Source of the DNA: Candidatus Thorarchaeota archaeon
Lineage (GTDB): Archaea; Asgardarchaeota; Thorarchaeia; Thorarchaeales; Thorarchaeaceae
Direction: 5' to 3'
DNA length: 32,000 bases
NCBI GenBank assembly: GCA_003345555.1
Contig: PRDJ01000010.1
Span: 60,001-92,000, forward strand
A program made the translations under genes and the position numbers. Below the pieces are notes generated by a model that was not told where the DNA came from, made no database searches, and saw only the letters and a list, made by a program, of their open reading frames with translations. This document shows, in pieces, positions 6,175 through 10,110 of the stretch (positions are counted from its first letter, which is position 1; every line of letters begins with the position of its first letter).

Positions 6175-6681
6175 CTACTTCTTCCCCCTAAGAGGCTCGT
6201 TGAGCTGCTGGTCCCACTTTCCTTCCTTGATTTCCTGCTGGAACTCCTTTGCAGGCTTTCCCTCAATTGTGACGCCCACTGAGACGCAAGTACCAGCGAT
6301 TATCAATGCAGCTGACTTCATTGTGAGAGCTGTAAGATCTCCTGCCTTTGCTTTTGCAATCGACTTCAGCTGATCTATTGTGATATTTCCAATAGTCTGT
6401 GTTTTCGGAGTCGCGGATCCCTTGGGGGCACCAATCTCCTTCAGAATCAAGGCACTCGTAGGTGGAATCCCGACTTCAATCTCGAATGTTTTCTTGATAG
6501 TGTCCACGATGATTGTTACTGGCACTTTCAGACCTGCGAAGGGCTGTGTGACTTCGTTAATCTTCTGCACGACTTGGAAGACATTGACTCCGGTCGGTCC
6601 CAAGGCTGGTCCAATCGGAGGTCCTCCTGAAGCCTTACCTCCCTCAACCATCGCAGAGACTCTAGTCTTCTGTTCACTCAA
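6175..6681 (-). CDS. rpl11: 50S ribosomal protein L11 (uL11); TTG start at 6681
   Basis: GGKASGGPPIGPALGP, PPTSALI and GTCVSVGV motifs; GGAG ribosome-binding site upstream. Confidence 0.96.
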   Translation of the reverse strand: MSEQKTRVSAMVEGGKASGGPPIGPALGPTGVNVFQVVQKINEVTQPFAGLKVPVTIIVDTIKKTFEIEVGIPPTSALILKEIGAPKGSATPKTQTIGNITIDQLKSIAKAKAGDLTALTMKSAALIIAGTCVSVGVTIEGKPAKEFQQEIKEGKWDQQLNEPLRGKK

Positions 6682-6840
6682 ACAAATCACGACTCCTGAT
6701 GCAGTATATTCGGTCCATCGAAATGTAACCGTTAGGGTCGACCGCTTGGAGACAAGAAGTGATACGTCCAAGTCGGTCTACTGCATTACCAGTCATTCAT
6801 CTTCACCCCTGGCACGGCGTCATTGCGCCTGTGTCTGATT
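6682..6840 (-). promoter_or_regulatory. Structured 5' leader of the rpl11-rpl1-rpl10-rpl12 operon
   Basis: Nested inverted repeats ATGCAGTA/TACTGCAT (6699-6706/6779-6786) and GACCGCTTGGA/TCCAAG-T-CGGTC (6740-6750/6767-6778). Confidence 0.55.
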
Positions 6841-6935: not shown

Positions 6936-7601
6936 TCAATGCGACCAGAACGAGTCTTCTTCCTCTTCTGGACGAGGCGCCTCGCCTTTCTCTCCTGGTA
7001 CTACCTCTTCAACAGCCTTTCCCTTCTCGACGATCTTGGCAAAGTCTGCATGGACTCGCAAGGGAATCGTGTGTGGGCTTTCAAGTAGCTCCAGTATAAG
7101 TTCCTCTTTGGATGTATCAACCCTTGAGACCTTTGCTCTCTCACCCTTGAAGGGTCCGGATATGATTTCGACCACATCTCCAATCGATATACCCTCGGCA
7201 GCTGGCGGGGGCGCGAGGAACTTATCGATTTCATCTAAGCTGACCTTTCCTCCGACTCGTCCTCGGACATGAGGTACACCAGATATCGCTATTTCAACAT
7301 CCCTGAACTCCATTGTCTCAAGGAAAACATATCCACGTAGAGTCTCTGGAACAAGTATTGCCATGACTCTGCCGAGCAACTGGTTCTTGGACACTAGCCT
7401 TGGCTCACCCTTCTTCTTGCCGGCCTTGCTGCAACTCTCCATATGCTTGGTAGTGCTTTTCTCTGAAGAAAACTGCTCACCGCAATATGGGCACTCCCAT
7501 AAATCAGTCTCTCCTGTCACGGCAGTCGTAATCAGATCTGCAACAGACCTCTCTTGACTGATGGTTGTCCTTATGGCGTAGATGCTTGTCTTCGACTGCA
7601 A
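6936..7601 (-). CDS. spt5: Transcription elongation factor Spt5 (NGN + KOW) with inserted C2HC zinc finger
   Basis: IYAIRTT..QE, LRGYVFLE, KOW motif GDVVEIISGPFKGERAKV; syntenic between secE and rpl11. Confidence 0.93.
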   Translation of the reverse strand: MQSKTSIYAIRTTISQERSVADLITTAVTGETDLWECPYCGEQFSSEKSTTKHMESCSKAGKKKGEPRLVSKNQLLGRVMAILVPETLRGYVFLETMEFRDVEIAISGVPHVRGRVGGKVSLDEIDKFLAPPPAAEGISIGDVVEIISGPFKGERAKVSRVDTSKEELILELLESPHTIPLRVHADFAKIVEKGKAVEEVVPGEKGEAPRPEEEEDSFWSH

Positions 7602-7638: not shown

Positions 7639-7821
7639 CTAGGCTCTTCCCCACAGGCTGGTCAGTGCGGTCATCAGCAACTGGACTATGAAGCTGAGCA
7701 TCCCAACAAGGAACATTGCTAGGAGGCTAATCTTCGTGCTTGACCAGAACTCCTGACGCGATGGCTTTGTGGCAAGCTTCAGGATTCGCGCGCTTTCTCT
7801 GATGAAATTACCGAGGCCCAT
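7639..7821 (-). CDS. secE: Protein translocase subunit SecE/Sec61 gamma
   Basis: RILKLATKPSRQEF motif followed by one TM helix; synteny. Confidence 0.93.
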   Translation of the reverse strand: MGLGNFIRESARILKLATKPSRQEFWSSTKISLLAMFLVGMLSFIVQLLMTALTSLWGRA

Positions 7822-7922: not shown

Positions 7923-9056
7923 TCAGCTCAGCTTTGGCACTCCCAGTTCCCTTTTCAAATCCTCTGCTAGTGGTGTCACCGGCATAGACTCAGCATCAAA
8001 GATGTACGGTGAGCTGACGCCGGAGGCTATTATCGTGACTCTAATCCTATCCTCAAGCTCGGGTATTATGACAGCACCATAGATGATCTCAGCACCCGGA
8101 TTCACTTGTTCTGTCACGAGCTCGACCACGCGCTTCGCCTCCCTGAGCTGGAGGTCAGTACTGCCGCTTATGTTGATGAGAATGTTGTGTGCGTTTTCTA
8201 TCGAGACATCAATCAACGGGTTTCGCAATGCGTTATTCACTGCCTCTTCGACCCTGTTCTCGCCCTGCCCTTCGCCCAGAGCGATTATTGATACACCACC
8301 ATTCTTCATTGTCGTCCGCACATCTGCAAAGTCCAAGTTGACCAGGCCTGGCCTCGAGATGAGTTCTGAGATTCCTTTGACTGCACGTACTAGCACTTCA
8401 TCAGCTACCATGAAAGCTTCTGGAAGGGACAAGTCAGGAGCAATTTCGAGCAACTTCTCATTCGGGATAGCAATCAGAGTGTCCACATGCTCCATTAGGC
8501 TCTTGAGCCCTCTCATTGCATTGCTTTTCCGAATCGCGCCCTCGATTTCGAACGGAAGGCAGACGATTGCTACGGTAAGTGCACCATTTTCCTTTGCTGC
8601 TCTGGCAACGTGCCCGGATGCTCCAGTTCCTGTTCCACCGCCCATTCCAGCCGTGATGAATACCAAATCCGCTTTCACTGCGTCCTTGATCTGCTCATAT
8701 GATTCCTGCGCGGCTTTCTCACCAATATCGGGGTTGTTGCCGGCACCAAGGCCTCCACATGTCTCTCGGCCGAGTAGGAGCTTGTGGTGAGAATTGCAGT
8801 AGTACAGGTCTTGAGCATCTGTATTCATGGCCAGCGTTTCTGCTCCCTGAATTCCCACATCCATCAGACGAGTCACAGCATTGTTGCCTGCTCCGCCAAC
8901 TCCAACGACGAGTATCTTGGCTGTTGCAGACTCAAGAATGGATGCCAGTTCTTCATCAGTAATGGCGTCCTTGCTGGTCCTCCTTACCGGTCTCGTTCCC
9001 GGCAGGTCGCGTTTCGGTAGTGCTCCGCCTAGTACTTCTTCAAGCAGTGGGTGCAA
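7923..9056 (-). CDS. ftsZ: Cell division protein FtsZ (FtsZ1 context); probable TTG start near 9056
   Basis: GVGGAGNNAV, NTDAQDL, GAGNNP, GGGTGTG and NLDFADV motifs. Confidence 0.96.
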   Translation of the reverse strand: MHPLLEEVLGGALPKRDLPGTRPVRRTSKDAITDEELASILESATAKILVVGVGGAGNNAVTRLMDVGIQGAETLAMNTDAQDLYYCNSHHKLLLGRETCGGLGAGNNPDIGEKAAQESYEQIKDAVKADLVFITAGMGGGTGTGASGHVARAAKENGALTVAIVCLPFEIEGAIRKSNAMRGLKSLMEHVDTLIAIPNEKLLEIAPDLSLPEAFMVADEVLVRAVKGISELISRPGLVNLDFADVRTTMKNGGVSIIALGEGQGENRVEEAVNNALRNPLIDVSIENAHNILINISGSTDLQLREAKRVVELVTEQVNPGAEIIYGAVIIPELEDRIRVTIIASGVSSPYIFDAESMPVTPLAEDLKRELGVPKLS

Positions 9057-9141
9057 CTCTACAATACACCTTCTAGTCTCTACTATGATGTAGATATTAT
9101 CTGAAGAAAAAGTGGAATACTCTCGACGTATTACCCGCGCG

Positions 9142-10110
9142 CTACTTCCGCCTTGGTCTTTCCTGTCTTCCTGCCTTGAAGCTTCTGAGAATTGGCTCGA
9201 TAGATATCCCGTGCTTGTTGAGCAGCTTTGCGACTTCATCCAGTGTGGGTTGCCCGTTTTGCGCTCCAATCTTTGTAATCTTGAGAGCAGCTACGGCATT
9301 CGCCATGTGAAGTGCCTGTTCAATCTTCTCCAGTCTCGTCCATGACGTCAAGAAACCTGCGGCAAACGCATCTCCCGCACCGGTCGTGTCTGCAACAGGG
9401 ACGTCAAAGGCCCTTGACGTACAGAACTCAAAACCATCGGATGCTATCGCGCCCTCGCTCCCCATCTTTACAATGACTACGCCCGGAAAGGTTTTTGCCA
9501 AGCCTCGGACTTCACTCTCAGTCGGTTCCACCTTGAAGTACTCTCTGAGTTCGTGTTCATTTACGAAGAGCAGGTCAGTGTGGCGCAATACACTGAAGTA
9601 GTCAATCGTCTCGGCGGTTTTTCCGGGGTCTAGAGAAAGGACCATTCCTTCCGTTGTGGCAATCTCCGCGGCTTTACTGATGGTCATTGGCAGACCGCCC
9701 GCCACGTGTATCGTCCTAGCTCTTGCCAGATAGTCTTCCTCGAGCACATGCTTCTCTAAGAACCTGTTCGCACCGGGCTCAACCATGATTATGCGCTCAT
9801 CATTAGGGGCAGTAGCAATCACAAACACGCCGGTCGGTTGATCCGCCAATACGAGGATTGAATCTGTATCGACTCCGATTCTGGACAGCTCGCGAAGATA
9901 CAACTGGCCATATACGTCATCTCCCACACAGCACACAAGACCGGTCTTTACGCCGAGGCGTGCTGACTGAGCGGCGAAGTTCGCTGCCGAACCACCAAAC
10001 GAGACGTGGCCCTGTTGGCACATCAGGTGTTCGTTCTTTGCTGGAAGCCTTTCGACCTTGAGTAGCACGTCAATGTTCGCGCGTCCCACTGCAACAACTT
10101 CAAGGGACAA
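9142..10110 (-). CDS. PfkB-family carbohydrate/nucleoside kinase
   Basis: GGSAANFA and DTTGAGDAFAAGF PfkB signatures. Confidence 0.92.
   Translation of the reverse strand: MSLEVVAVGRANIDVLLKVERLPAKNEHLMCQQGHVSFGGSAANFAAQSARLGVKTGLVCCVGDDVYGQLYLRELSRIGVDTDSILVLADQPTGVFVIATAPNDERIIMVEPGANRFLEKHVLEEDYLARARTIHVAGGLPMTISKAAEIATTEGMVLSLDPGKTAETIDYFSVLRHTDLLFVNEHELREYFKVEPTESEVRGLAKTFPGVVIVKMGSEGAIASDGFEFCTSRAFDVPVADTTGAGDAFAAGFLTSWTRLEKIEQALHMANAVAALKITKIGAQNGQPTLDEVAKLLNKHGISIEPILRSFKAGRQERPRRK

Follow-up and report, generated by a model that had tools for sequence, protein, structure and literature searches.

A C2HC zinc finger predicted within the NGN domain of Spt5 in the Thorarchaeaceae

Why would an archaeal Spt5 carry what looks like a zinc finger inside its NGN domain, and what would such a module do on an elongating RNA polymerase (RNAP)? 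The question is posed by the window analyzed here, a stretch of 32,000 nucleotides from a Candidatus Thorarchaeota archaeon of the family Thorarchaeaceae (assembly GCA_003345555.1, contig PRDJ01000010.1, positions 60,001 to 92,000), in which an initial annotation, made from the letters alone, had flagged positions 7374-7514, corresponding to residues 30-76 of an Spt5 protein. Among transcription factors, only Spt5/NusG is known to be shared by all cellular life. The product of 6936-7601 is an archaeal Spt5 and the sole copy in the genome. It scores 144 bits against the Spt5 equivalog model TIGR00405 (cut-off 70), 59.3 bits against Pfam NGN PF03439 (cut-off 22.4), with the match broken into two stretches by the insert, and 33 bits against Pfam KOW PF00467 (cut-off 22.3) over residues 141-168. 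The best Foldseek matches of its predicted structure are the Spt5 proteins of P. furiosus, M. jannaschii and T. kodakarensis (3p8b_B, 4zn3_A and 9bct_G; E about 1e-15 to 2e-15), and the core NGN residues (GY..E and HVRG) are conserved in Spt5 homologues. Spt5 is encoded at one locus in the organism's own genome (2.28 Mb, 93% complete), and a search of that genome for a second, canonical paralogue found none.

The extent of the insert follows from the spacing of two conserved motifs. RTTxGQE, at strand 1/helix 1, and GYxFxE, in strand 3, are 72 residues apart here, against 28-30, mostly 28, in 20 other Asgard Spt5 proteins read from genome DNA; the distance is also 28 in most archaeal Spt5 representatives. 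The insert therefore comprises 44 extra residues, in line with the approximately 45 estimated in the initial annotation. Its reading from the DNA gives the pattern W-x-C-P-Y-C-x3-F-x8-H-x3-C followed by SKAGKKKGEP, and the proposed ligands are all in place: C37 (codon 7491-7493), C40 (7482-7484), H53 (7443-7445) and C57 (7431-7433), together with F44 at the classical core position. The arrangement C37-x2-C40-x12-H53-x3-C57 fits the classical-finger spacing C-x2-4-C-x12-H-x3-5-[HC]. The finger core is made up of W35, F44, T50 and M54, and the position of the classical core leucine holds Thr or Ala in the family. A strict search pattern for classical fingers has a single match, in Spt5 itself, among the open reading frames (ORFs) of all six frames of the 2.28-Mb genome.

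Structure prediction supports the same assignment. AlphaFold2 (AF2) was run on an 84-sequence alignment for full-length Spt5, and the insert was also folded alone. The full-length model has a mean predicted local distance difference test score (pLDDT) of 82.6, with 85-90 in the insert, which contains strands at 34-36 and 43-44, a helix at 47-56 and an extra strand at 68-71. All four elements are kept when the insert is folded alone, and we therefore assign the third strand to the finger module rather than to the NGN sheet. The structural neighbors of the insert in Foldseek and VIA-align are classical fingers only, with weak scores, as expected for about 50 residues. Among them, MYST C2HC fingers superpose with a root-mean-square deviation (rmsd) of 0.7-0.8 Å over 25 residues at 40% identity; in VIA-align, the third finger of Kaiso (ZF3) plus its C-terminal extension reaches Z 3.6, AFV1p06 (2lvh) Z 3.3 with an rmsd of 3.3 Å over 42/45 residues, and the Rad18 UBZ Z 2.5, equal to generic C2H2 fingers and at Foldseek rank 7. 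A profile of the insert searched against PDB sequences matched classical fingers at E 8.6e-7 to 3e-5, values that are partly summed over repeats, and the archaeal-virus finger protein B-129 (2WBT) at E 3.1e-5. AFV1p06 (2LVH) was not among the best 60 of the 144 PDB sequences matched by this profile (E up to 10). On the AF2 model, then, the insert is a classical β-β-α finger of C2HC type, extended by a third strand, and is predicted to bind zinc. The central proposal of the initial annotation, an Spt5 with a C2HC finger inside the NGN domain between helix 1 and the next strand, is thus borne out by the equivalog match, the split NGN match and the predicted fold.

Two known fingers help to define the module. 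It resembles the C2HC finger of MYST acetyltransferases in the pattern C-x2-C-x3-F-x8-H-x3-C, in the aromatic residue before the first Cys and in the predicted β-β-α fold. Unlike classical fingers, it is single and embedded in a loop of another domain, has Thr for the core Leu and an acidic body, and carries a third strand. In this last respect it is similar to AFV1p06 (PDB 2LVH; PMC3541406), a finger from the archaeal world with a loop and a third β strand after the helix, whose fourth ligand was shown experimentally to be Glu (PMC3541406). The finger of one thorarchaeal genus, g2, likewise appears from its sequence to use Glu as the fourth ligand. Unlike the Spt5 finger, AFV1p06 stands alone as a small protein and binds double-stranded DNA, its helix face being positively charged (PMC3541406), and no significant similarity to it was seen in the best 60 of the 144 sequence matches of the insert profile.

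We searched 301 Asgard genomes, including 16 sampled genera of the Thorarchaeaceae, for the Spt5 of the window. Matches spanning residues 1-221 were found in 75/76 other genomes of the family, whereas in every other Asgard family the match begins at residue 39 or later, mostly at about 76-79; the sister family in the same order, represented by one sampled genome, has the canonical loop. The close homologues are from Candidatus Thorarchaeota and include those of SMTZ1-45, AB_25, OWC2/3 and the BC bins. The insert was read in all 16 sampled genera of the family with no loss seen, and the ligands are retained in 120/121 close homologues. Among 75 distinct family sequences, 71 have C-C-H-C, one has the last Cys shifted one position later and three have Glu as the fourth residue; this C2HE form (H-x3-E) is found in all three sampled members of genus g2. 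W35, C37, P38, C40, F44, H53, P67, N73, L75, G77 and R78 are invariant across 28 diverse members, and within the segment that returns to the NGN fold P67, S71, N73, L75, G77 and R78 are invariant or almost so. The outcome that, according to the initial annotation, would have spoken against its reading, Cys/His not conserved in orthologs that carry the insert, is therefore not what is seen.

The insert is under purifying selection. The ratio of nonsynonymous to synonymous substitution rates (dN/dS), calculated pairwise by the NG86 method and rough because dS is near 1, is 0.08 for the whole insert (residues 30-78), 0.13 for the finger (34-58) and 0.13 for the linker (59-78), compared with 0.03 for the rest of the NGN domain and 0.04 for the KOW domain, which makes the evolutionary rate of the insert about threefold that of the core. 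Because all genera carry it, its ligands are conserved and its dN/dS is low, we regard the insert as old, family-wide and under selection, and it arose once, in the ancestor of the family. Outside Asgard no similar insert was seen: the Methanobrevibacter, Methanobacterium, Theionarchaea and Thermoproteota genes matched in the genome scan are all canonical at this loop. With tblastn, no second copy of the insert turned up in the organism's own genome; a profile search for free-standing relatives (28-97 amino acids) among 5.8 billion proteins returned two truncated Spt5 fragments only, and a protein atlas search for a donor gave weak C2H2 leads only (score 0.77). As the initial annotation had stated for canonical archaeal Spt5, the other Asgard and archaeal Spt5 proteins lack the finger and are canonical at this loop, apart from the unrelated inserts described next.

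The site of insertion is itself informative. In about 17/140 archaeal Spt5 representatives the loop between helix 1 and strand 2 holds an insert of at least 8 residues, and inserts of this size were found at the hairpin between strands 2 and 3 in 0 of the 140; within archaeal Spt5, internal insertions fall mainly in the helix 1-strand 2 loop. The other inserts at this loop (carriers include P0126, P0140, P0154, P0167, P0218, P0236, P0248 and P0259) are unrelated in sequence; some are helical segments, some are domains of 180 residues, and the one nested in the loop of P0140 is a second KOW domain. In P0167 and P0259 the insert is about 150 residues long (spacing 181 vs 28). None of the other archaeal loop inserts compared contains a classical C2HC finger. 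The insert of P0236, with Cys and His in a different arrangement (CxxC ... C-x6-H-x4-H), may form a further metal site. Outside the NGN domain, N-terminal extensions of at least 8 residues precede it in 97/140 representatives (e.g., P0143, P0147 and P0196) and reach up to 214 residues, and 28/140 have C-terminal extensions; the compact 150-residue Spt5 is not the majority form in metagenomic diversity.

The initial annotation had asked whether Spt4 is present, and it is: the genome encodes it outside the window (contig C18, 177-374, minus strand) with its four Cys residues. Spt4 was found in 75/81 sampled family genomes, including 23/23 of high quality, and Elf1 is also present in the genome of the window. 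The idea that the insert compensates for a lost Spt4 or Elf1 was ruled out, both being present and intact; since this core elongation toolkit is intact, the insert is an addition and not a replacement. Moreover, Spt4 of the family has 8 extra residues, a loop of the LPGRNPH type, in 12/12 aligned family genomes and in 0/10 other Asgard Spt4 proteins, the sister family included. Match spans agree, with 195-201 nucleotides in all 75 family genomes with a hit vs 174-183 nucleotides elsewhere. The loop follows the Spt4 strand that would pair with NGN strand 2 and precedes the helix that caps an invariant Spt5 Glu by its N-terminus. Because antiparallel pairing puts the end of this Spt4 strand beside the start of Spt5 strand 2, the loop is expected near the segment by which the insert returns to the NGN fold, and the Spt4 loop and the Spt5 insert are probably in contact.

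The topology of the NGN domain suggests where on the elongation complex the module would lie. NGN has the order β-α-β-β-α-β, with the helix 1-strand 2 loop at the N-terminal end of the sheet. The opposite end is formed by the strand 1-helix 1 loop, the strand 2-strand 3 hairpin and the helix 2-strand 4 loop, and in Spt4/5 crystal structures a strand of Spt4 pairs with strand 2, which forms the edge of the sheet. The human residue K222 presumably directly precedes the GY motif. K222 and R246, the latter corresponding to the arginine of the archaeal HVRG motif, lie in the strand 2-strand 3 and helix 2-strand 4 loops and contact upstream DNA and the non-template strand (PMC10482750). In the complex, Spt4 is directed away from RNAP and the upstream duplex runs along a positively charged Spt4/5 surface (PMC3094117). 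From the loop topology, the pairing with Spt4 and the known DNA-contact end of the domain, the insert is expected on the RNAP-distal, Spt4-adjacent side, a placement that fits both the survey of loop inserts and the Spt4 loop.

The surface charge of the module differs between its two parts. The finger body (residues 30-57) has a net charge of -1 to -7 in nearly all members, and the helix positions that contact bases in canonical fingers (-1, 2, 3 and 6; here S46, K48, S49 and K52) vary within the family. Because its body is acidic and its base-contact positions are variable, the finger does not resemble a DNA-reading finger and is in keeping with a role in protein contacts, as is typical of many C2HC fingers. 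The linker that follows C57 has a charge of +5 to +9 in most genera. In genus g4 it is acidic (-1 to -2, in the three members read), and the whole insert there has a net charge of -2 to -9. The basic linker noted initially, KAGKKK in the protein of the window, is thus found in most genera but not in g4.

Altogether, we favor, with modest confidence, a model whereby the insert forms an added lobe on the Spt4 side of Spt4/5 that stiffens or extends the interface of the two proteins and offers a docking or tethering surface on the elongating polymerase. In this model, the module would bind one zinc ion and sit at the RNAP-distal, Spt4-proximal end of the NGN domain, where it would pack on the new Spt4 loop and thereby enlarge the outer lobe of the heterodimer, while the clamp-binding and bubble-facing surfaces would be left unchanged. 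The acidic finger would make protein contacts, stiffening the joint between Spt4 and Spt5, docking a partner, or both, and the Lys-rich linker, where present, might hold on to upstream DNA, or to RNA that passes on the side of Spt4, by non-specific electrostatic attraction. Several points weigh against this model. Where the finger lies with respect to Spt4, RNAP and DNA is inferred from fold topology and co-occurrence, and the joint presence of Spt4 loop and Spt5 insert is no proof of co-evolution, because both map to a single ancestral branch and could coincide by chance. Because the g4 linker is acidic, an electrostatic tether to DNA or RNA would be widespread in the family but not universal. 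For the reason given above, the dN/dS values are approximate, and at residues 35-57 the Pfam finger models stay below their thresholds, with zf-C2H2_4 at 18.5 (27), zf-C2H2 at 18.1 (25.2) and zf-C2HC_2 at 16.5 (27) bits.

The strongest competitor, which we nevertheless consider unlikely, is that the finger and its Lys-rich linker form a nucleic-acid clamp on the upstream duplex, the non-template strand or nascent RNA, similar to the KOW1/NGN DNA clamp of eukaryotes. The classical finger fold is mostly DNA-binding, single fingers with basic extensions of the GAGA type bind DNA, and the structural neighbors include two DNA-binding units, namely Kaiso ZF3 with its extension and AFV1p06, which has the same third-strand extension and binds double-stranded DNA (PMC3541406); a linker that is basic in most genera and upstream DNA that follows the positive Spt4/5 surface (PMC3094117) would suit such a clamp as well. 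Against this stand the acidic finger body with its variable base-contact positions, the acidic linker of g4 and, if the topology is read correctly, an insertion at the end of strand 2 opposite to the residues that touch DNA. A further proposal, unlikely as well in our view, is that finger and Spt4 loop together make up a dedicated docking site that recruits a lineage-specific partner, be it a chromatin protein, a ubiquitin-like modifier or a factor for termination or RNA processing. If this were true, thorarchaeal Spt4/5 would show in a prokaryote the hub function that eukaryotic Spt5 owes to its added domains.

It is more doubtful still that the insert is a tolerated insertion at a permissive loop that became structurally entrenched by packing, for example on NGN or Spt4, and has no interaction role of its own, being conserved now solely because the fold would lose stability without it. 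Such an origin would be in keeping with a loop that is the main internal insertion site and holds unrelated inserts in other lineages, with the roughly threefold faster evolution of the insert relative to the core, and with invariant residues that are mostly ligands, hydrophobic core or return segment. However, the insert is kept in all 16 genera without loss, and the matching Spt4 loop together with a Lys run that persists in most genera suggests a surface in use. We regard as very improbable a UBZ4-like reader of ubiquitin-like proteins, of the Rad18/WRNIP1 type, that would couple RNAP to the Asgard ubiquitin-like system. UBZ4 fingers require an acidic residue two positions after the His for ubiquitin binding. 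The C2HC ligand set with near-UBZ4 spacing, the place of the Rad18 UBZ among the weak structural neighbors (Z 2.5; Foldseek rank 7) and the Glu found two residues past the His in the Spt5 of the window would all agree with such a reader, but this position (55) is Lys in 79/121 homologues with an entropy of 1.66 bits, so an acidic residue is not conserved there, and the structural scores are no better than those of generic C2H2 fingers. Finally, the view that Cys and His fall into this pattern by chance, or that assembly or annotation errors created it, has the sub-threshold Pfam finger scores and nothing further in its favor and is already refuted by conservation; against it stand an insert in frame in hundreds of independent assemblies, invariant ligands, a confident fold prediction and purifying selection.

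Spt5 of the window ends, as the initial annotation had observed, in an acidic run with FW near the end, the last residues being SFWSH. Acidic runs with a terminal [SG]FW are present in the tails at 21/21 family loci, and such an acidic, aromatic-tipped tail occurs in 12/127 archaeal representatives. Other Asgard Spt5 proteins have analogous acidic tails with an aromatic tip (e.g., ...EWAKFDGF and ...VFSEFF), and the tail is reminiscent of the peptides with an acidic tip in SSB or ribosomal stalk proteins. Auto-inhibition through charge pairing of the Lys-rich linker with the acidic tail was considered and found unsupported, the acidic tail being kept in genus g4 despite its acidic linker.

The gene lies in the run ftsZ-secE-spt5-rpl11, all on the minus strand, which is the usual archaeal context (Table 1). 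TTG seems to be its start codon here, whereas most family homologues open with M-E-P/x-S-T-S.

Table 1. Position of spt5, the parts of its product and the neighboring genes in the window
Feature	Position	Strand	Basis and remarks
spt5	6936..7601	-	221 amino acids; TTG start 7599-7601 (apparent), stop 6936-6938
NGN part 1, strand 1 and helix 1, residues 6-29	7515..7586	-	AF2 strand 6-12 and helix 17-29; first Pfam NGN stretch
Inserted module, residues 30-78	7368..7514	-	Spacing 72 vs 28; pLDDT 85-90; all 16 sampled genera
Zinc finger proper (predicted), residues 34-57, hairpin and helix	7431..7502	-	AF2 strands 34-36 and 43-44, helix 47-56; invariant columns; profile matches
Lys-rich linker, residues 58-67 (SKAGKKKGEP)	7401..7430	-	Charge survey of the family
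Third strand 68-71 and return segment to NGN strand 2	7368..7400	-	Fold of the isolated insert; conservation
NGN part 2, strands 2-4 and helices 2-3, residues 79-130, including the invariant GY..E	7212..7367	-	AF2; Pfam NGN 71-129
KOW domain, residues 138-195	7017..7190	-	Pfam KOW 141-168; AF2 strands 143-192
Disordered acidic C-terminal tail, residues 196-221	6939..7016	-	pLDDT <50 at 196-217; conserved SFW near the end
secE (upstream neighbor)	7639..7821	-	Pfam SecE
rpl11 (downstream neighbor)	6175..6771	-	Pfam Ribosomal_L11 N- and C-terminal domains; true start probably internal to the ORF
ftsZ	7923-9269	-	Neighbor of spt5; ORF list

In its overall plan, the system follows canonical archaeal Spt4/5 (3P8B; 3LPE/4ZN1/4ZN3; 9BCT), with an NGN domain and a single KOW domain, the gene order secE-spt5-rpl11, a single gene copy and a four-Cys Spt4 ribbon. 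In contrast, the 44-residue finger module, the 8-residue Spt4 loop and the acidic SFW tail are all absent from the solved archaeal proteins, which have about 147 residues. A lineage-specific domain nested in the NGN domain also has a bacterial counterpart, domain II of NusG, which presumably occupies the strand 2-strand 3 hairpin and is much larger, unrelated and metal-free in its fold. The Thermotoga and Aquifex NusG structures that contain domain II (2XHC and 1M1G) are both among the Foldseek hits, and the thorarchaeal insert differs in its site, the helix 1-strand 2 loop. Lineage-specific additions to NusG/Spt5 are thus already known, in the form of bacterial domain II and the extra KOW domains of eukaryotes, while this finger is apparently undescribed: no description of the Spt5 insert or the Spt4 loop was found in the full-text literature searched, and none of the insert in a 2026 survey of elongation-factor domains covering 218 Asgard proteomes or in a paper on Asgard ribosomal-protein clusters that lists spt5.

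Eukaryotic Spt5 became a recruitment hub through gained domains. The Thorarchaeaceae are one family and not the closest Asgard relative of eukaryotes, so that any bearing of the finger on eukaryogenesis would be indirect. As a permissive site, the helix 1-strand 2 loop may be useful for engineering tags or probes into Spt5. For the family itself, the insert suggests that an Asgard lineage independently added a eukaryote-type finger to its NGN domain, with Spt4 adjusted to match, and it would provide a compact, testable case of an elongation factor that gains surfaces without disturbing its core contacts.

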